Source of the DNA: an uncultured archaeon
GTDB lineage: Archaea; Asgardarchaeota; Hermodarchaeia; Hermodarchaeales; Hermodarchaeaceae
Length of the DNA stretch: 53,689 nucleotides
NCBI GenBank assembly: GCA_964347045.1
Contig: CAYFXC010000008.1
Coordinates: 73,768-127,456, forward strand
Direction: 5' to 3'
The first letter of the stretch is position 1; every line of letters starts with the position of its first letter. The notes below the pieces were generated by a model. That model saw nothing but the letters and a program-made list of their open reading frames with translations, was not told the origin of the DNA and ran no database searches. Below are positions 8,829 through 18,777 of the stretch, one piece after another. The position numbers and the translations under genes are program-made.

Positions 8829-9284
8829 CTACACTTCGGGATTGGTTTCAGTATTTGATTCTGAGGAATTCTCTTTTGGCTGTTGGCGTTTAAGAGGTTC
8901 TTTTGCATCGATGCTGTATATGGCTTTGACATAGAGTCCCCCCTCACATCGAGGACAAGGACCAATGTCTCGAAAAATGTGATCACCAGATTCCAGAGGT
9001 CCTTCGGTTTCAACACCACATTTTTCACAAGCGATCAGACGCCGAACTTCGGCAAATTCGAGCTTAGTCGGGGTACGGGTTCTGCGATAAACAAGGATTA
9101 AGAAAACGCCGAGAAATCCCACCCCGAGACCCCATAAAAGAAAATTGAGAGGTGGAGGTTGAAAAAATCCCCAAAATAATAGGACAATAATTAGAGCAAT
9201 AAGAAGTGCCCACCAAAAACGCTGACTCATACCTCCGGCTGTCAATTCTGGGCTGGGTTCTCCAGCCGCCTGGTAATTCGACAT
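8829..9284 (-). CDS. Membrane protein with two TM helices and C-terminal Zn finger
   Basis: Two hydrophobic helices followed by CEKC...CPRC. Confidence 0.75.
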   Translation of the reverse strand: MSNYQAAGEPSPELTAGGMSQRFWWALLIALIIVLLFWGFFQPPPLNFLLWGLGVGFLGVFLILVYRRTRTPTKLEFAEVRRLIACEKCGVETEGPLESGDHIFRDIGPCPRCEGGLYVKAIYSIDAKEPLKRQQPKENSSESNTETNPEV

Positions 9285-9365: not shown

Positions 9366-10715
9366 CTATTTTTTACTTTTTCGCATTCGTTGAATAAATG
9401 AGAGGGTCTCTTCGATTTCTCGCTCTCGAGCTTCAATAAGTGGCCACAAACTTAGCCCTAAACCTTCTCCCGAAATTTCTGCAAACAAATCAATGAAAAG
9501 CCCAACTTGGTATGCATACATGTTAGATACAGTCTGTGACGGGCGCCCATGTTTGATGTGAAATTCAACAAGAGCATAATCACTCCACCTACGATAGGTT
9601 TCGTTCTTCCAAAGTGTTGCCGCATCAAGTGGAAAATGCATTAGGGCATTTTTCTTTCCAATATTTGGAAAAAGAAACGGAGCTTGAAATGGATTCTGAA
9701 CATTCCATTCAATATGGAGTAAATCCTGGGTTTTTAAGGGATGTAGCTTACAGGGTATAGCTGTATTATCCCGGCGAACCTCAGGAGTAGTGAGAGCATA
9801 GGCATGCCATTTTCTAGGTACATGCAAAGCAATTGGACTATCAGCGCTCTGTAAATTATCAATATGACTAACACGAAGGTCATTAGGAACTTCTTGGTAG
9901 TGATAGCTACCCCCGAAAGCTTTAGTCATGTAATCAGCCATGGGATTGAAGTCATCTGGAGAAATCTGCAAATCTTTACTGTCCCAGTTAATAAAAGATC
10001 GAATGGTATGACCAGGTCGTTTACCTTTTAGAATAGGCTGAGCACCATAATCAGCATTAAATGTCACAATTAGGGGTTCAAAGGTTTTCCCGTCCTTCCT
10101 AACTATTACATAAACGGGTTCATAGTCATACAAATGCCGGGGGAGAAGCTGAATAGGCCAATAAGTAAAATATTGGATGCAGTATATGTTCTTATCTGCG
10201 GGATCTCGACTAACTCGAAACTTGATTACACAAGTCGGTGTATCTTCAGAGGGAAAGATGCTCGAGAAGAGGCTACGAACATATTCCTGGAATTGTACTG
10301 AGTATTCAGATCGAAGGCGGTTCCGAATCTGATCAAGTACTCCATGCATTTCTCTATCCCATGGTATATCACTTTCAGGTAGATCAACGCCTAATACCGC
10401 GAGTTTTGCACCAGTTAGATTCTGAGGGAAATCACCAAGACAAAATAGAAATAACGTATCCGCGATCCCAGCAAAATCGTCACCACGAATTCGTTTCCTT
10501 AACGCAGCGAACCTTCCTTCAGACACTGATAGACCCAAATTCTTTGCGAGATCTTCTTTTTCCTCTTTGAATAAGCGCATATCTACATATAGCTTTGGAC
10601 AAAATTGTTGGGCGAGACGATGTTCTTCATCAGTTGGTTTTTTTAGAGCTGGTTTGAATCCTGCTAAAGGAAACGCCTTTTTCCACCGATTGATAACTAA
10701 TTCTGATAATTTCAT
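9366..10715 (-). CDS. Hypothetical protein, possible Vps62/NPP1-like fold
   Basis: 449-aa ORF; LAQQFCPKLY and IQYFTYWP..HLYDYEPVYV resemble the P-x-L and Y..H-x-x-D-W-E motifs of Vps62/NPP1-like proteins. Confidence 0.6.
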   Translation of the reverse strand: MKLSELVINRWKKAFPLAGFKPALKKPTDEEHRLAQQFCPKLYVDMRLFKEEKEDLAKNLGLSVSEGRFAALRKRIRGDDFAGIADTLFLFCLGDFPQNLTGAKLAVLGVDLPESDIPWDREMHGVLDQIRNRLRSEYSVQFQEYVRSLFSSIFPSEDTPTCVIKFRVSRDPADKNIYCIQYFTYWPIQLLPRHLYDYEPVYVIVRKDGKTFEPLIVTFNADYGAQPILKGKRPGHTIRSFINWDSKDLQISPDDFNPMADYMTKAFGGSYHYQEVPNDLRVSHIDNLQSADSPIALHVPRKWHAYALTTPEVRRDNTAIPCKLHPLKTQDLLHIEWNVQNPFQAPFLFPNIGKKNALMHFPLDAATLWKNETYRRWSDYALVEFHIKHGRPSQTVSNMYAYQVGLFIDLFAEISGEGLGLSLWPLIEAREREIEETLSFIQRMRKSKK

Positions 10716-10826: not shown

Positions 10827-11786
10827 ATGTATCGATTACTAGAACTTGTGAATGATATTACAATTGAACGAATTAATCCCTTATCTGATCTTCCAGAACT
10901 TGTTTCGCTTAATCGAAAGGATACAGAAACTAGTGAAGGCATCGATCCCCAAGAATGGCAGCAACTTTCTCGCATGGAACGTTGGCAACAAGGAGGTCCT
11001 TGGCTCGATCGACAAACCTTGGCGCTTCATTTAGACGTAATGGAAGAAGCAGGCGGAATAATCTTAATTGCGCGAACCCCGGAATTACTTGTTGGCGAAT
11101 TAGAACTCCTTTTTGAAAAACATGTCAGTGACATAACTAAGGCTTTTATCACCTGGATGGTCGTGCATCCAGGATTTCGACATCAGGGAATCGGATCACA
11201 ATTGATCAACCATGCAATAAAATTGGCTAGAAATCAAGGTTGTAAACAGCTCTTTACAACAACGGAAAATCCAGATGCTTCACACTTTTTTGAAGCTAAT
11301 AAATTTAAAATTATTGACCAAGAAGCACAATTTTCGAAGACTCTAAAGCCCTTCCGTAAACCACCATCGCCAAATATTCAAAAAATCTCGCTGCAATGGA
11401 AGCAACGTGAACACACCCCAATGGGCTTTGTACCGAGTATCGGAGTTAATTATACCTCAGAATATATCTGGAGTTACCTACGCAACACAGATCATTTATA
11501 CAGTATGTTAACAATTGATGTCCCCCGACCACAACTATGGTTATTGCGTCAAATAGAGAAAGAAGCTCTAACCGTAGATTACCCATTTCTTCGGATTTGG
11601 TTAGCCGAAGCCAACGCGCAAGATACAGATTTCCTTATATCCGTTTTAACCGTCACTGAATATTTGAGCTGGAAAAATGGAGTGACAAAATTATCTGCAT
11701 TTTCGCATAGAGACAAGTATGAATTTCTCAAAGCGAACGGGTATCAACTTAAGCAGGAACACCCTTTCCTAATGCTAGCAATTTAG
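10827..11786 (+). CDS. GNAT N-acetyltransferase
   Basis: Motif A VHPGFRHQGIGSQL; ASHFFEANKF. Confidence 0.85.
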   Translation: MYRLLELVNDITIERINPLSDLPELVSLNRKDTETSEGIDPQEWQQLSRMERWQQGGPWLDRQTLALHLDVMEEAGGIILIARTPELLVGELELLFEKHVSDITKAFITWMVVHPGFRHQGIGSQLINHAIKLARNQGCKQLFTTTENPDASHFFEANKFKIIDQEAQFSKTLKPFRKPPSPNIQKISLQWKQREHTPMGFVPSIGVNYTSEYIWSYLRNTDHLYSMLTIDVPRPQLWLLRQIEKEALTVDYPFLRIWLAEANAQDTDFLISVLTVTEYLSWKNGVTKLSAFSHRDKYEFLKANGYQLKQEHPFLMLAI

Positions 11787-11789
11787 TTA

Positions 11790-14162
11790 TTAAGAATGGA
11801 TAATGCGACCATTTGCCATCCGATATTGATGTTCTGACGCTGATAATACCGCAACCTGATGACTCACTACAATAATCTGTTGGAAGGTTCGAGACAATTC
11901 GTCTTTTAATAGTCGGATAATATTATCACGGCGTTGAATATCGGAGCCTCCAAAGGGTTCATCAAGAAGAAGAAACTGGGGTGCGGTTCCCCTACCTTGG
12001 GGGAGAAGAGCAATAGCAAAGCCTAATCGTAGAGCAAGGAGAAATTGGTCTTCGGTTCCACCACTGTACAGGTTGGCTTCAACATATTCCCCAGCTGTTG
12101 AGGAGTATACTTTGAGACTATAATCCTCACTCAGTTTCGGAAACCGATACCTACCATCAGTTATTGTTGCTAAAAGCCGTTCCATAACGTTTACAACACG
12201 AGGGCGAACTTGTTCACGGCCTTTTTCTGCAACTTCACGAATGAGATCGATGACAAGCTGACCAGTTTTGATATTTTCATCAAGTTTCGCAACTTCTCGT
12301 TCTTTTACCGAAAACTCTTCTGCAACACCTTCATTTTCTTTTAAGAGGTTATTTAGTTCGACAATTCGTTCAGCAGTGGTTTTCCGATTGGTCTGCAATT
12401 CGACTTTTCTTTCACGCATCTCTCTAACTTGTTTATCGAGTTTCTCAAAAAGAGCATTCGAATATTTTCCTATATTCTCAGGTAGTGTGGGAAAACTCAA
12501 GGAGGATAACTCGTCATTCAATGCAACAATTTCTAATTTGGTTTGTGCCAAATCTTCTTCCGCTTCAGCCATTCCCTTTATCTGATCTCTAATTGAGCCC
12601 AATTGTGCTGTTATCGAATCTGCACCAGCTTTGAGTTCGAGTAGTTTCTGATCTACAATTCTTACAGTTTCGAGTAAAGTGGATGCATCAGATTCCGCGG
12701 ATATTTTTATTCCTTCGAGAACAGAAGGAGAAAGCTGATTTAGCTGTGAATGAACTTTTTTGCTTTGTGCCATGATTTCTTTGTTTAAATCTTCTTTTCG
12801 ATTTAGTTGTTCTTGAAGTTGATCTTGGAAATTTTCTTTTACTCGATGTTGTGTAATTACCTCGCTCAGCGTTTCTTCGCGTTGTCGAAGTTGGTCTAAT
12901 TTGAGAACATTTCGTCGGAAGAAGTAGTATGTCCTTCCCAAGTAGGCTAGAAAAGGAATTGCACTTATCATTAGGATAATGCCAATTGGGAGATTGAAAA
13001 ATAGGGTAGCAATACCTGCTGCGAGAAGCCCAATGGAGAGGATATAAAGAAATGGAGAAAAAATTCGCTGCTGTCTCGCTTCAGCTTTTTCCCTTTGAGT
13101 TTTGACAGATTCATATTCAACGACAACGTCATCTATTGGACTTAATCCATCGAGCTGAGCTTCCAATTCGGTGATAACTTCAGTTACCATTTGTTTTTCA
13201 TCGACAATAGTTCGTAATTGATTCGAAATTTCTTGTAATTCATCAAACTTCGTTGTATCATCTTCCAAATACTCAAGTTGTTTTTGACGTTTCTTTAGAC
13301 GCTTTTGTTGAGACTGGAGTTTAGATGCGCTAGCTAATTGTTTCATAATTCGCGCCCTAGTCTCATTTCTAAATCCGATTTCTCGTTTCAACTCCTCTTG
13401 CTTATCCTGGATATCTTTGTAAGCCTTAACCCCGGCGTAATCTTTCTCGGTTTGAGCTAGAATTTGACTAATCTGCTTGAGTTGTTGTTCTAGCTGGGTT
13501 AGAACTTGTTGTTTATTTTCTTGCTCACCTATTTGCTTACCATATTCTTCATTGCGATGTTGTAGCTGTTTTAGCACATCTCGTTCCGATTCAAGGGCTT
13601 TTTTCAGTGGACGAATTTCAAGCGCAACTTTGTCGTCGACACGGGAGAAACATTCCCGACCCATCATCGCATTGATGACATGACGTCGCTCCATTTTAGG
13701 CATCTGTGCCAAACGATCTAAATCCTTCTGCAAAACAATATTACTCGCGAGAAGGTCACTGAGGGCAATTCCGTTGAGAAGACCAGTGATTTCTTTATCG
13801 ACGTTTTTTACACCGGTTGCAAGCAAAGTAGTCTGCCCTGATGAACCGATTTTATGCAGCTGCGCTTGAGAAGGACGTTTGCGATGAATTTGACGCGTAA
13901 CTCGATAATTCGTTCCCTCGATTTCAAAAAATAATCGAACAAAAATCCTATCGGCGTCATAGTTGATAAGCCGATCTTTTTGCCCCGTAGGAGCTTTATG
14001 AGTCCGCCCAAAGAATGCAAATAATATTGCCTCAAAGATACTAGACTTTCCTGACTCATTGGGTCCACTGATCGCCAGAATGCCTTGAGGGAAGGTGATA
14101 TCAACATCAAGATGTTTGAAATCTCGTGCGATAAGTTGTCTAAGAATAACCACCTTCACCAA
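11790..14162 (-). CDS. rad50: Rad50/SbcC SMC-like ATPase with a central hydrophobic hairpin instead of a zinc hook
   Basis: Walker A GPNESGKS, Q-loop IVLQKD, long coiled coils, signature LYSGG, Walker B LLLDEP, H-loop VSH; start overlaps the end of mre11. Confidence 0.9.
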   Translation of the reverse strand: MVKVVILRQLIARDFKHLDVDITFPQGILAISGPNESGKSSIFEAILFAFFGRTHKAPTGQKDRLINYDADRIFVRLFFEIEGTNYRVTRQIHRKRPSQAQLHKIGSSGQTTLLATGVKNVDKEITGLLNGIALSDLLASNIVLQKDLDRLAQMPKMERRHVINAMMGRECFSRVDDKVALEIRPLKKALESERDVLKQLQHRNEEYGKQIGEQENKQQVLTQLEQQLKQISQILAQTEKDYAGVKAYKDIQDKQEELKREIGFRNETRARIMKQLASASKLQSQQKRLKKRQKQLEYLEDDTTKFDELQEISNQLRTIVDEKQMVTEVITELEAQLDGLSPIDDVVVEYESVKTQREKAEARQQRIFSPFLYILSIGLLAAGIATLFFNLPIGIILMISAIPFLAYLGRTYYFFRRNVLKLDQLRQREETLSEVITQHRVKENFQDQLQEQLNRKEDLNKEIMAQSKKVHSQLNQLSPSVLEGIKISAESDASTLLETVRIVDQKLLELKAGADSITAQLGSIRDQIKGMAEAEEDLAQTKLEIVALNDELSSLSFPTLPENIGKYSNALFEKLDKQVREMRERKVELQTNRKTTAERIVELNNLLKENEGVAEEFSVKEREVAKLDENIKTGQLVIDLIREVAEKGREQVRPRVVNVMERLLATITDGRYRFPKLSEDYSLKVYSSTAGEYVEANLYSGGTEDQFLLALRLGFAIALLPQGRGTAPQFLLLDEPFGGSDIQRRDNIIRLLKDELSRTFQQIIVVSHQVAVLSASEHQYRMANGRIIHS

Positions 14163-15319
14163 CCCCCATACTCTTCAAGGAGCTCTATTCCACGTTCTAA
14201 GGCATTTTGGAGAAGCTTCTTCTTTTCAGGGTTTTTTTCTTGATTGATTCGTTCAAGGACATATTCTCGGTATTCGGTGTTTGGAGGTTTAAGTTCAGCT
14301 TCAGGAACCAAAAAATCTGGATCTGGACTAATGTATTCAAGTTCATCAATAATTTCAGTTGAGAAGCATTTTGCAAATCCGTGGCGTACGACCTCCGAGC
14401 GACGATATAGTTCAGCAGATTTGATTGTCATAACTCCCTTAAGACGGAATCGAAGGATAAGTTGAGGATTACGAAGACGCGTTATTTCTTTGATGAGCAA
14501 TTGATTGATATTCGAGTCTTCGGGAATTGTTACCTCGATAGTTTTCATGGGACGGGTTGCAATAGGAATTTGTTTGAGTTGTTGAACGCCATCGGTGTCT
14601 ATTTCAAGCCAGACAAAACCTTTCTTTTGACCTTCTTCAGAAAAGGTCACATGTTCCGTGCTTCCTGGAGTGCAAATGGTAGTATTCTGGAGTTGTTGTT
14701 TTTGAAAATCATGATTATGACCTGCAGCCAAATAAGTGAGTTTTTTAGGAATCGATTTCAATAGGATATCAGGTTCGTGAGGAAAAGTCCCACGTAATCC
14801 CTCAACGTTATAATGAGCGAGGAGGAGATTCACATCACCTTTTCCAGGAATAGACAATTGTTTCAGAGGGTCTTCTGAAGGTAAAATCAGGGGATTAAAC
14901 GATAACCCTGAAACTTCAACCTCCAGATTGTTAATGGTAATCGTATCGGTTTGGATAGTTTCCCAGTTCTGGAAGAAATTGACAAACCCTGCACGGGCAT
15001 ATTCAAGTAGGGGTGCAACACCATGGCGGCGAGCACGAGGAACATCATGGTTTCCACTGATAATGTAAACAGGAATTTGCTTTTCATGGAGTTTACGGAA
15101 CGCGTCCATAACATGTGCACGGACTGGATTGCGAGGATTTAAGCCATCAAAAAGGTCCCCTGAATGTAGAAAAAGGTCTGGTTTCTTTTCGAGGGCATAC
15201 GTGATGACATCATCAAAGGTTTTTAAGAAGTCTTTTTTTCGTTCATAACGTCTGGCTTGGAATTTTACGCCAGGTATATCCAAATGAGTATCGGATGTAT
15301 GCAAGATTGTAATGGGCAC
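14156..15319 (-). CDS. mre11: Mre11/SbcD nuclease
   Basis: Metallophosphoesterase motifs SDTHL, GDLFD, GNHD, LAH, GHNH, PGSTE; position in the operon. Confidence 0.93.
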   Translation of the reverse strand: MPITILHTSDTHLDIPGVKFQARRYERKKDFLKTFDDVITYALEKKPDLFLHSGDLFDGLNPRNPVRAHVMDAFRKLHEKQIPVYIISGNHDVPRARRHGVAPLLEYARAGFVNFFQNWETIQTDTITINNLEVEVSGLSFNPLILPSEDPLKQLSIPGKGDVNLLLAHYNVEGLRGTFPHEPDILLKSIPKKLTYLAAGHNHDFQKQQLQNTTICTPGSTEHVTFSEEGQKKGFVWLEIDTDGVQQLKQIPIATRPMKTIEVTIPEDSNINQLLIKEITRLRNPQLILRFRLKGVMTIKSAELYRRSEVVRHGFAKCFSTEIIDELEYISPDPDFLVPEAELKPPNTEYREYVLERINQEKNPEKKKLLQNALERGIELLEEYGGW

Positions 15320-15325
15320 AGATAA

Positions 15326-16957
15326 TCAAACCTCGGAGAAGGATCCTTTGAGCTTGGTTTCTTCTTTTCGTTCTCTTACAAGTTGTTGCTCGATTCCTAC
15401 AGCTTTTCGTGCTTTTTTAAGTCGTGCAACTACATCGATGTCCGCTCCACCCTCCTTTGTAAGGCGAGGACGGACTTTCACCATGACAGGAGTGCGTGTA
15501 ATATCACCGACTACTACGGCTTCACCGACATTGAGACCGGGAAGATCCGAGATTAGATCTTCACTTAGTCGTTCAGAGGATTGGGCAATGGCGTTTTGGT
15601 CCCGGGGATTAGTGATTTTTAAAACAATTTGACTATTGCATTGGCTAAGGCTATCAGGATGAATTCGTCCAGGCCTTTGACTGATTAGAAGTAAAAAGAC
15701 GCCAAATTTTCGCCCTTCCTGGGCAATTCGCCGAATGATCGGAGCGGAGTAGGTAAAAGTTTCTGGAGGAACAAAATTGTGGGCCTCTTCAACAACGATG
15801 AAAACCGGATAAGTGAATTCGTCTGTTGCAACTGCTTCAAATACATCTCTTAAAAGTCTGCTAACAATATAATCCGTGCTTCGATTTCCGAGTCCTGAGA
15901 GGTCCATAACAGCGGCGTGATAGGGCTTAATGATTTTTGTGATTGGTACTCCACTTCGTGAAAAAACACGTAGTCGCCGAAGACGATGAATATATTTAAC
16001 TGCATTTCGGGCGCCCGCACGTATATCCTTGCTAGCTTCTTCATTCGTAGAAACGGCATTCAACTCATTTACGATGTCTTCCATGAGATAAACTACTTTC
16101 CGTTCTTTTAACTGATTCAAGGCAGCCTCTAGACCAGCACGAATAATTGTGAACTGCTCCCCTATTCCACAAATACCACATAGTTCATCAAAATCTAAAT
16201 CAGCTAATCGAACAGTATATTCTTCGACTTGTCCAATGTCTTTCTTACTATAGCGACCGGTACTTTCAGGATTTTGAAAAACAGTAACATGATTAGAGAA
16301 ATCGTGCGTTTCGCCTTTATCAGTTTGACTCAGAAAGACATAATCAGCGTGAGGATCGATAATAATAACTGTCGCACCCCGCTGCATTAATTCTTCGATA
16401 AGCACACCTGTGAGATAACTTTTCCCTGCACCAGTCTGGGCTAGAATAGCCACATGACGTCGAAACCCATTGATGCGTATATTAACGGGGATCTGTGGAC
16501 GAGAGATGAGATTACCAACATGGAGGCTGGCTTCAGGGGGATAAGCATAAAACTGGGAAAGAAGGCGATCTGGAGCAATATAGATGGGATTTCCTGGCGT
16601 TACCGCTCTACGGGGGAGTAATATTAGCGGTGGATGTCCTTTCTTGGAAGGAGCAAGGTATCCGAGAACACGGGCAATACCCCATGTTTTGATATCATCA
16701 ATATGTGCTTCTTTGATACGAGTGATGGCTTCATAATCTAAATCTCGACGCAGGGCTAGGCTTTGTGCGGTGATACGCTCGACTTGCGCCAGCACCTCAA
16801 CGGATGTTAACACACCATCTACCAATTCTTCAGATTCAACGGTGAGATATTCAAATTTCGGAGGATACCTTTTCTTTTCACTCGCAAAGTAAAATTCAGT
16901 GGCTTTGGCTTCTTCAACAATAAATCCAACTGGTTCATCTTCGTATGTTTTAGGCAT
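15326..16957 (-). CDS. herA: HerA helicase/translocase
   Basis: N-terminal HAS-barrel-like region, RHVAILAQTGAGKS, IIDPHADY, IVVEEAH, EGRKFG, SQRP, SQCNSQI. Confidence 0.93.
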   Translation of the reverse strand: MPKTYEDEPVGFIVEEAKATEFYFASEKKRYPPKFEYLTVESEELVDGVLTSVEVLAQVERITAQSLALRRDLDYEAITRIKEAHIDDIKTWGIARVLGYLAPSKKGHPPLILLPRRAVTPGNPIYIAPDRLLSQFYAYPPEASLHVGNLISRPQIPVNIRINGFRRHVAILAQTGAGKSYLTGVLIEELMQRGATVIIIDPHADYVFLSQTDKGETHDFSNHVTVFQNPESTGRYSKKDIGQVEEYTVRLADLDFDELCGICGIGEQFTIIRAGLEAALNQLKERKVVYLMEDIVNELNAVSTNEEASKDIRAGARNAVKYIHRLRRLRVFSRSGVPITKIIKPYHAAVMDLSGLGNRSTDYIVSRLLRDVFEAVATDEFTYPVFIVVEEAHNFVPPETFTYSAPIIRRIAQEGRKFGVFLLLISQRPGRIHPDSLSQCNSQIVLKITNPRDQNAIAQSSERLSEDLISDLPGLNVGEAVVVGDITRTPVMVKVRPRLTKEGGADIDVVARLKKARKAVGIEQQLVRERKEETKLKGSFSEV

Positions 16958-18287
16958 GACGAATCCTCCTGTCTCGACGTTTCGGCGTCAATAGAATTTT
17001 CAACTCTTTTTCTACTAATGGTTCATATAATGTTCTCACATCACTCATAGGAAGCCGCGCTTCTTGGTCAGCTTTCACCAAATAGACATTATACAACTCG
17101 CGTCCGCCATATTCTCCACGTAAGGTCCCAAGAACCCTAGTTACACGAGGCGGCGGGGGATCCAGCAGGCGTGATACAGATATCTGAGAAATTCGTGTTG
17201 GGAGCCCAGCATTGAAAGCGGGCATATCAATTCGCATGGGAGTATCATTATAGGCAAACTTGGCGCAAAATGTTACAAAGGTAGGAATTTGAAAGAAATC
17301 TTTCATCACAGGAATAGCCCACTTTTCAAAATCCTCTGCCCGCTCATAATCATCATAAGCGCTTACAAACCGTCGTCTAACATATGCTAGTGGTTTCTTC
17401 GATTCGTATTTGAAGAGGGGCACATCGGGGTACGGTTCAATTGGAGTAGTATACCCCGTAGTTTCTGTCCAAGCACGGATTAGAGAAAAGTCTGGACGCG
17501 GACGCCTAAGCTCGAAAAGTAGATCCCAAATTAAATCATGTTGATCACTACTAATTGAAAGACCCTTGAGGACGCTTCTGGCAGAAATTGATTGTTTCTT
17601 TTCAGTGTCAAATAATTGGGTTAATTGGTCTAAGTCTTTGGGAGAAATCATAGAACTGAGATTTTTTAGAATGTCATTCTTTAATGACTCGAGAAGAATT
17701 CGCGTCAGGTGTCGGGCAACAGAATCTTTGCTAATTCCCAAGATCAAGATTTGGCGTTTCCGGCATTCTTCGAGTAGCTGCATGAATGTCTGTAAATAGC
17801 GTAAATAGAGATCCCTTTCACCTGGATAATTAAAGGCAACTGGTACATGTGTTACTCGTCCATACAAAGAGCCATCTATTAGTATCAGATCTACATCAGA
17901 ACTTTCTTGAACGGCTTGGAGAGCCACTTGATGTTCGATATGTTCGGAGCGTATTCCGGCAAGGTTAATGAGTTGTTCTCGGGGAGAGGCAATTATGTGA
18001 GCATTTGAGGCAATTTTACGATATTTTATACCCCATGATGTGATTGCACATGCCCGGCATATATACATGAAAGAACCGGGTGCATACTCACGGATAGAAC
18101 GCCCACTATCCACAGCGATAACATTAAGATCTAGCTTCTTTTCTTCAGGAATGGGGTGCCATTCTTTTTGAAACGCTGTTTTCAAGAGTCCATCGAGATC
18201 TGTGGATTCTTCGCCAGTAAGTCGACGACGAAAGGTTTCTCGTTTTTCTTGTAACTCTGTTAGGAATAAATCAAGAAAATGTGGCAT
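16950..18287 (-). CDS. nurA: NurA 5'-3' nuclease
   Basis: IAVDSG, ILIDGSL, GISKDS, C-terminal LVKADQEAR; overlaps the herA start by 8 nt. Confidence 0.88.
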   Translation of the reverse strand: MPHFLDLFLTELQEKRETFRRRLTGEESTDLDGLLKTAFQKEWHPIPEEKKLDLNVIAVDSGRSIREYAPGSFMYICRACAITSWGIKYRKIASNAHIIASPREQLINLAGIRSEHIEHQVALQAVQESSDVDLILIDGSLYGRVTHVPVAFNYPGERDLYLRYLQTFMQLLEECRKRQILILGISKDSVARHLTRILLESLKNDILKNLSSMISPKDLDQLTQLFDTEKKQSISARSVLKGLSISSDQHDLIWDLLFELRRPRPDFSLIRAWTETTGYTTPIEPYPDVPLFKYESKKPLAYVRRRFVSAYDDYERAEDFEKWAIPVMKDFFQIPTFVTFCAKFAYNDTPMRIDMPAFNAGLPTRISQISVSRLLDPPPPRVTRVLGTLRGEYGGRELYNVYLVKADQEARLPMSDVRTLYEPLVEKELKILLTPKRRDRRIRHA

Positions 18288-18777
18288 GGTACCTTCGCCC
18301 CACTGTATGCTTCACAGATGCCTGATTTGCACCTTTAAACCTAACCCACACAATATGATAAGTTATTACAGCTTATTGCAGCAATTGAACTTTAAGGAAG
18401 AATTTTTCTCACTACCCAAGTTGTATTGGTTACAAGAGCTAATGTGGGTATTACCGAATTACGTAACCGGCGATAGGTACAATGCAAGTTGACCCGTTTC
18501 ATCACTTCTGATTTAGGCTAACGTTATGAATTTCGTTCTCAATTTATTCTTTTAATTCATTGCACTCTCCGTTGCTACCGAATGGTGTCTATTCATTTAG
18601 TTACACGGAGAGAAGTTTTAATCGGTATAGCAATCATCACTATCATCAATCAAATAATTTGGGTTATTGTTTGTTTCGTTAACCCGATTAATACTTGCCC
18701 ATTTTAGTTAAACAACTAAACTATAAATGATAGAAATATGTAAAACAATACAACCAATAACAGCGTGGTTCTAAACA

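Follow-up and report, generated by a model that had tools for sequence, protein, structure and literature searches.

A NurA-HerA-Mre11-Rad50 cassette of an Asgard archaeon whose Rad50 carries a putative membrane hairpin where other Rad50s carry the zinc hook

In characterised archaeal systems the Rad50 heads, together with Mre11, bind and clip DNA ends, and HerA-NurA resects them. The zinc hook is regarded as a defining feature that all Rad50s share, and current models of how Mre11-Rad50 senses and tethers ends (ring and rod) are founded on it. The hook functions as a module for constitutive dimerisation, and an SMC hinge can substitute for it without loss of repair function (PMC6969161). A different central region is described for SbcE/YhaN of Bacillus subtilis, which lacks the CxxC motif and has a conserved hydrophobic, insoluble central domain with a conserved proline; together with its nuclease partner SbcF/YhaO it functions in double-strand-break repair, and it also contributes to transformation and forms polar foci in competent cells (PMC2811018). 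A 2020 review of the Rad50 apex does not mention SbcE/YhaN and uses the word "membrane" once, in an unrelated sense (PMC7752040). No description of an archaeal Rad50 with a membrane hairpin was found in the literature searched; the ABC-ATPase classification of Krishnan et al. (2020) may mention the clade. The DNA analysed here, a 53,689-nt stretch of the genome of an uncultured Asgard archaeon (the window; contig CAYFXC010000008.1, positions 73,768 to 127,456 of the forward strand), carries a four-gene nurA-herA-mre11-rad50 cassette whose Rad50-like protein has a hydrophobic helical hairpin at the apex of its coiled coil. Proteins of this hairpin type make up a large Rad50 branch in archaea and bacteria that has hardly been described, so they are no peculiarity of this genome. 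An earlier note on this DNA, made from its letters alone, had cited YhaN-type proteins as a precedent for such an architecture, and this precedent holds.

The rad50 gene (11790-14162, minus strand) encodes a 790-aa ABC ATPase with a long antiparallel coiled coil and matches to SMC_N, AAA_23 and SbcC_Walker_B. The protein has a single cysteine (C171), no CxxC motif and no match to the zinc-hook family PF04423. The apex hairpin comprises residues 367-409 (12936-13064, minus strand), a run of 43 residues that excludes D, E, K and R; 29% of the residues of the whole protein are charged. The second-longest uncharged run has 18 residues, and a run as long as 43 has a probability of about 4e-7 at any one position. 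The block has a Kyte-Doolittle hydropathy of about 1.95; K and R are about two-fold enriched on both of its flanks, and D and E are depleted downstream. An AlphaFold2 (AF2) model, built from a 27-sequence alignment (pLDDT 76.9), is helical from residue 169 to 667, with helices at 343-367 and 370-386, a turn at 387-390 and a helix at 391-474. The arms that flank the hairpin have about 199 and 218 helical residues in the model, or a length of about 29 nm, and the hairpin is placed by the model at the fold-back point of the coiled coil, where other Rad50s carry the CxxC hook. The earlier note's account of the lone cysteine, the missing hook and the position of the hairpin at the apex is correct in each of these respects, coordinates included.

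The hairpin is conserved well beyond this genome. All 48 close homologues, which come from metagenome-assembled genomes (MAGs) of Promethearchaeota/'Thorarchaeota', keep the block at the same position and lack a CxxC; their identities are 47-76%, and the full-length ones have 781-791 aa. When 1.84 billion cluster representatives were searched exhaustively with HMMER, 223 matched at E <= 1e-30. Among the best 149 of these, which were examined as 50%-cluster representatives, at least 121 carry a hydrophobic block of 31 aa or longer at their centre, several others carry it in two pieces, and none (0/149) has a central CxxC. Among the members that carry names are the protein annotated as 'Rad50' in the cultivated Thermofilum adornatum and proteins of other Thermofilum, Bathyarchaeia, ANME-1 and Blastocatellia. 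In distant members the length of the block, its hydrophobicity and its basic collars are conserved and its sequence is not, as would be expected of an anchor embedded in lipid. Such a protein could in principle be mimicked by a chimeric assembly, by a frameshift or by a decaying Rad50 without its hook. The 790-aa frame is unbroken and all ATPase motifs are intact, however, and the 48 close homologues, whose assemblies are independent, share the architecture, as do hundreds of more distant proteins; an artefact or pseudogene is rejected on this conservation, and its probability is negligible.

The composition of the hairpin points to a membrane segment. Two hydrophobic stretches of about 19-20 residues, joined by a short turn and bounded by basic flanks, make up a predicted hairpin of the membrane type. 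Simple, position-independent sums on the Hessa scale come to -1.7 kcal/mol for the first 19-mer and +2.1 kcal/mol for the second; elsewhere in the protein they do not fall below +6.6 kcal/mol. Helix 1 has a hydrophobic moment of 0.08, that is, no amphipathicity, which argues against its being the surface of a soluble bundle. It is possible that the hairpins lie outside the membrane, and that those of two chains form a four-helix hydrophobic core, a zinc-free soluble dimerisation module equivalent to the hook. Such a core would suit the finding that the essential role of the hook is constitutive dimerisation, for which another module can be substituted (PMC6969161). The close family also has small residues invariant on helix 1 and a nearly invariant glycine on helix 2 (S376 and G383 in all of its members, G378 and G394 in at least 90%), which fits tight helix packing, and the hairpin is short for two complete membrane spans. 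Uniformly apolar helices, with a moment of 0.08 and no charge in 43 residues, would nevertheless leave a large hydrophobic surface exposed, and K/R collars on both sides are typical of membrane interfaces. That distant members conserve only hydrophobicity and length is likewise the habit of anchors and unlike that of specific protein interfaces, and the central domain of SbcE is completely insoluble when expressed alone (PMC2811018). A soluble core appears improbable on balance. A predicted complex of two copies of residues 320-460 (alignment A1) scored 0.03 (mark 0.42) and is not used as evidence.

The relationship to hook-type Rad50 was examined in a head-only tree, built from about 165 N-terminal and 165 C-terminal residues with the hairpin and the coils left out. 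The tree is a quick search, with hairpin-type rows taken from the best matches to this query. All 51 hairpin-type rows fall in one clade with SH-aLRT 99, together with 8 nested rows in which no hairpin is detectable, and all 19 hook-type Rad50/SbcC rows, nine of them Asgard, lie outside this 59-row clade. At least four Asgard genomes (G029, G142, G097 and G207) hold hairpin-type and hook-type Rad50 genes side by side, and in G029 both are present as full operons; coexistence in single genomes marks the two types as old paralogues, not allelic states. Judged by these sequences, the hairpin cassette is a separate ancient paralogous cassette and not the product of a local hook loss in the canonical Asgard operon. 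The occurrence of both types in single Asgard genomes and the head-only tree are the new elements here. The hook-type Rad50 of G142 (L155, G142:C10:63521-65605) has one in-frame TGA, which could be a sequencing error, a pseudogene or recoding.

Two further groups of Rad50-like proteins are seen in the same tree. Those of Chloroflexota/Thermoflexus (about 1050-1270 aa; L125, L127, L128, L134, L137, L140; P0181, P0193, P0200, P0209) nest in the hairpin clade by their heads, and in these proteins neither a hydrophobic block nor a central CxxC was detected; they may carry a third kind of apex. Short ATPases of 431-443 aa, too short for long arms, are encoded in the Asgard family f6 (L051-L054; genomes G145, G139, G298 and G211) directly after an Mre11-like gene (358-381 aa), and form a long-branched clade of their own. 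The hook-type operons of the same family (L055, L056, L065, L066) have two paralogous polytopic membrane proteins following rad50 on the same strand, each of about 500 aa and with 6-9 hydrophobic segments.

Among 301 genomes of the phylum, 19 belong to the family of the source genome, and all 18 others of this family have a close orthologue beside Mre11. In other Asgard families (genomes G029, G018, G142 and G034) the full NurA-HerA-Mre11-Rad50 cassette of the hairpin type is sporadic, with identities to the window of 47-52% for HerA, 34-39% for Mre11 and 29-33% for NurA. The operons typical of other Asgard genomes encode a Rad50 that has a central CxxC and a length of about 700 or about 865-910 aa, and HerA and Mre11 proteins that are remotely similar to those of the window: the window HerA gives short matches of 25-35% identity to the HerA of hook-type operons, and the window NurA has no BLAST match to the open reading frames (ORFs) of these operons. 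Each of the four genes of the cassette resembles its counterparts in hairpin-type cassettes of other phyla more closely than those in the hook-type operons of other Asgard families. Four genes in the same order, with a hairpin Rad50, are present in Bathyarchaeia, Thermofilaceae, Thorarchaeota, Dictyoglomota, Krumholzibacteriaceae and unclassified bacteria, and Mre11-Rad50(hairpin) pairs that lack HerA-NurA are frequent in Bathyarchaeia, Nitrososphaeria and Chloroflexota. The genes of the cassette are inherited together. The earlier note had viewed the locus as a core archaeal operon with a membrane hairpin in place of the hook. This view is not sustained, since the genes group with separate ancient hairpin cassettes. 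The arrangement is widespread across archaea and bacteria and not special to this lineage.

The source genome (2.58 Mb, 83 contigs, 89% complete) encodes one Mre11/SbcD, which is that of the cassette, and no match to PF04423 above the cut-off was found in it. The presence of a second, hook-bearing Rad50, which the earlier note had left to be checked, was rejected: the other SMC-like genes encode an SMC with ScpA (G000:C1:184794-189183, where G000 is the source genome), which is a true SMC-ScpA, and a 985-aa protein, and neither has a CxxC or a hairpin. A hook-type Asgard Rad50 used as query against the 19 genomes of the family has the hairpin-type gene as its best match in 18 and no match in the remaining one (G096); one genome (G043) gave an additional 942-aa ORF. 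Hook-type Rad50 was therefore not found in the family, all of whose genomes are incomplete MAGs, so that "not found" is the proper term and not "absent". The window holds an ordinary member of the hairpin clade, notable in that it supplies the only Mre11-Rad50 found in its Hermodarchaeota-like family.

The 985-aa SMC-like ATPase (G000:C5:29991-32945; L019:992-3946) has weak SMC and ASRP matches, and its gene is followed by ORFs of 269 and 219 aa without a family match. These three genes look like a second SMC-like system besides SMC-ScpA. The source genome also has a second pair of HerA (521 aa) and NurA-domain (395 aa) genes beside ileS (G000:C1:173232-175963; L020:3233-5964, minus strand), unlinked to Mre11 or Rad50. 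This HerA is about 28-30% identical to the HerA of hairpin cassettes, and has similar scores to repair-type and anti-phage HerA models.

The four cassette genes are tightly linked on the minus strand, and ORFs, Pfam and NCBIfam families and catalytic motifs all agree with the operon that the earlier note described. The first gene, nurA (16950-18287), encodes a 445-aa protein of the NurA family (PF09376, E 2.8e-16) with the AVDS and IDGS motifs that contain the catalytic Asp. It overlaps by 8 nt with herA (15326-16957), which encodes a 543-aa FtsK/HerA-type hexameric translocase (PF01935, E 6.6e-39; NCBIfam helicase_HerA, E 1.3e-65) with a Walker A (GAGKS, residue 176) and a Walker B (VEEAH). 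The family matches, the intact motifs and the gene overlap identify the two as a HerA-NurA pair. Ced-type DNA import was rejected as a primary label, since HerA scores higher to HerA models than to CedD. After a gap of 6 nt, mre11 (14156-15319) encodes a 387-aa nuclease (Metallophos, E 3.4e-17; Mre11_Sulfo, E 6.2e-30) in which phosphoesterase motifs I-V are intact (DTH, GDLFD, GNHD, GHNH). It adjoins rad50 upstream on the same strand, and overlaps it by 7 nt if TTG is taken as the rad50 start. Homologues begin 3-4 codons further downstream than this TTG, so the start is uncertain by a few codons. The Mre11-Rad50 pairing holds in nearly all loci where the upstream region is available.

The split ABC head of the Rad50-like protein is complete. 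It has the Walker A motif GPNESGKS (residues 33-40, 14043-14066, minus strand), Q145 of the Q-loop, the signature SGGTEDQ (from residue 700), the Walker B LLLDEP with the D-loop (LLLDEPFGGSD, from residue 731; residues 700-741 span 11940-12065, minus strand), and the H-loop VVSH (residue 765). In a diverse alignment of hairpin-type proteins (A2, 23% mean identity) the Walker A residues G33, N35, E36, G38 and K39 are invariant, as are S700, D705, Q706, D734, E735 and D741; the forms G-x-N-E-S-G-K-S of Walker A and S-G-G-T-x-D-Q of the signature are distinctive of the clade. The top NCBIfam matches of the protein are archaeal Rad50 models, of which the best gives 120.3 bits, under the equivalog cut-off of 700 (PRK03918). 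The top PDB sequence matches of its heads are the Rad50 proteins of M. jannaschii, T. maritima and P. furiosus (E 7e-24; 3aux, 3qku and others), and the top fold match is Rad50 in the Chaetomium MRN complex (7zr1). A P-T-L-P sequence (residues 558-561, 12480-12491, minus strand) lies in a break of the C-terminal arm that the model shows as a loop (554-568). P558 is invariant in A2, and P561 in the close-family alignment A1 alone; the motif may be an elbow or a partner-binding site.

The explanation that best accounts for the locus, and in which we have moderate confidence, is a membrane-tethered end-resection machine whose hairpin anchors the Rad50 apices in the membrane. The cassette would supply a complete NurA-HerA-Mre11-Rad50 DNA-end-processing machine. 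Each Rad50 would fold back into an antiparallel coiled coil with about 200 helical residues per arm, some 29 nm long, and at the fold-back two hydrophobic helices of about 19-20 residues, with a turn of 3-4 residues, would insert in the cytoplasmic membrane. K and R on both flanks suggest that both arms are on the cytoplasmic side. In an Mre11(2)-Rad50(2) complex the two hairpins would lie side by side in the bilayer, so that the tips of the arms would be held together constitutively, which is the job of the hook, and the complex would be pinned to the membrane; the hairpin thus probably joins the apices there. The ATPase heads and Mre11 would hang about 25-30 nm into the cytoplasm, where they would bind and clip DNA ends and pass them on for HerA-NurA to carry out 5' resection. 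A natural replacement of the apex is mechanistically plausible, since the hook can be replaced by an SMC hinge (PMC6969161). The default role is presumably the processing of chromosomal double-strand breaks, as no other Mre11-Rad50 was found in the family. That the hairpin inserts in the membrane, that the apices pair there and that the complex serves repair are what we infer from the protein and its genomic setting, and the tethering of broken or foreign DNA and the role in segregation that the earlier note had proposed likewise keep the standing of conjecture.

Several points weigh against this machine. Helix 2 has two prolines and is marginal for insertion alone (+2.1 kcal/mol), and 43 residues are short for two spans and a turn, so that a re-entrant or monotopic insertion, or a hydrophobic core independent of lipid, is possible. 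For any member of the clade, association with the membrane is a prediction from sequence rather than an experimental result. The NCBIfam equivalog scores for Rad50, HerA, NurA and Mre11 are all far under their cut-offs, and orthology with the characterised repair proteins is accordingly not established. A machine pinned to the membrane by arms of about 29 nm would reach only peripheral DNA, which fits poorly with a role as the only general repair complex. That at least four Asgard genomes have both types also suggests that they are not simply interchangeable, and that the hairpin type may have a specialised task.

Such a task could be found at the envelope. The hairpin may anchor the complex as described above, and its normal substrate may lie at the envelope rather than in chromosomal breaks. 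It could be incoming or foreign DNA (uptake, transferred DNA, defence), or chromosome ends or termini at the division site, with the hook-type operon as the general repair system where both types exist. The retention of both Rad50 types in the same Asgard genomes is in line with this, since retained paralogues have usually diverged in function, and SbcE/YhaN plays a part in transformation and collects at the cell poles when B. subtilis is competent (PMC2811018). HerA is FtsK-like and scores against CedD and anti-phage HerA models, and Rad50 has generic matches to Lamassu LmuB and to the MADS mad3 model. The PADLOC scores of HerA and Rad50 (at most 172 and 91 bits) are, however, lower than those of the repair-type NCBIfam models (222 and 120 bits), and Mre11 and NurA have no PADLOC match. 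The neighbouring genes are not a defence island, and no Ced, pilus or restriction genes are adjacent. As the only Mre11-Rad50 found in the 19 genomes of the family, the hairpin type must also cover chromosomal repair, if this is present. A substrate confined to the envelope is on this evidence unlikely, though it deserves to be kept in mind beside the end-resection machine.

If the sole Mre11-Rad50 complex of the Hermodarchaeota-like Asgard archaea is anchored in the membrane, all Mre11-Rad50-dependent break processing in them might take place there, with ends captured at the envelope for resection by HerA-NurA. This is a speculative proposal, and we rate its chances as low. If true, the archaea most closely related to eukaryotes would have a prokaryotic equivalent of the process by which persistent breaks are moved to the nuclear envelope, and in lineages with both types the hairpin clade would represent a second, general membrane-coupled mode of Mre11-Rad50.

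The hairpin type bears on Rad50 more widely. A natural replacement of the hook is a test of which hook functions are essential, and it points to a link, so far unexplored, between the processing of DNA ends and the cell envelope. The clade includes cultivated relatives of Thermofilum and Dictyoglomus, which offer tractable organisms for testing this link. For annotation, the 'Rad50' of many archaeal genomes is a distinct paralogue, and its equivalence with the characterised protein is not to be assumed.

A TATA-like TTTAAA (18334-18339, minus strand) lies about 47-52 nt upstream of the nurA ATG and, as read from the letters, is a possible promoter of the operon. The neighbours of the cassette include a GNAT gene, a methyltransferase, a radical-SAM enzyme and unknowns. 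Downstream of rad50 is a gene for a 449-aa protein without a Pfam match (9366-10715, minus strand), followed by a 151-aa ORF (8829-9284, minus strand); in many genomes a convergent GNAT gene (10827-11786 in the window, plus strand) lies between the 449-aa gene and rad50. The 449-aa protein is found in every related locus that reaches that far, in both genera of the family (51-81% identity), and was not seen beside the hairpin-type cassettes of other families. This association is probably plain synteny.

Among known systems, the canonical archaeal Rad50 (M. jannaschii, P. furiosus, Sulfolobales) resembles the window protein in its bipartite ABC head, its long antiparallel coil, its adjacent Mre11 and the presence of HerA-NurA in the operon. 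The window protein differs in the lack of CxxC and PF04423, in the hydrophobic hairpin at its apex and in heads that belong to a separate clade; the gene order nurA-herA-mre11-rad50, the Walker A GPNESGKS and the signature SGGTEDQ are also differences from the canonical cluster. The hook-type operons of Asgard archaea belong to the same phylum and have the same four functions in a similar layout (a candidate NurA-sized gene, HerA, Mre11 and Rad50). Unlike the window, they encode a Rad50 with a central CxxC and no hydrophobic block, and their HerA, Mre11 and upstream gene products are 25-35% identical in parts or have no match.

Lamassu LmuB is similar in that the PADLOC model PDLC03859 aligns over most of the Rad50 (E 2.5e-26) and Lamassu structures are among the fold matches. 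The partners of the window Rad50 are Mre11, HerA and NurA, however, with no LmuA or LmuC beside it, and the LmuB score is lower than the scores of Rad50 models. LmuB is not known to have a membrane hairpin. Lamassu or MADS defence was rejected as a primary label, as the PADLOC matches are generic ones at the level of the ATPase and partner genes are lacking. The engineered fission-yeast Rad50 with a MukB hinge (PMC6969161) is alike in that the apex needs only a stable point of dimerisation, but it is an artificial chimera with a soluble apex and no membrane attachment.

SbcE/YhaN of Bacillus is the closest described relative, compared here by its description and by Pfam AAA_27, a family built around YhaN. 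AAA_27 is matched by 20 of 22 diverse hairpin-type members; the match of the window Rad50 is marginal (22.3 against a cut-off of 22 bits) and is confined to 75 residues in the P-loop region. SbcEF differs from the cassette in that it has two genes and lacks HerA-NurA, and the central domain of SbcE is not read as a membrane hairpin in the published work (PMC2811018). The trait of the SbcE/YhaN family, a hydrophobic central region in a protein without CxxC, is shared by the window Rad50.

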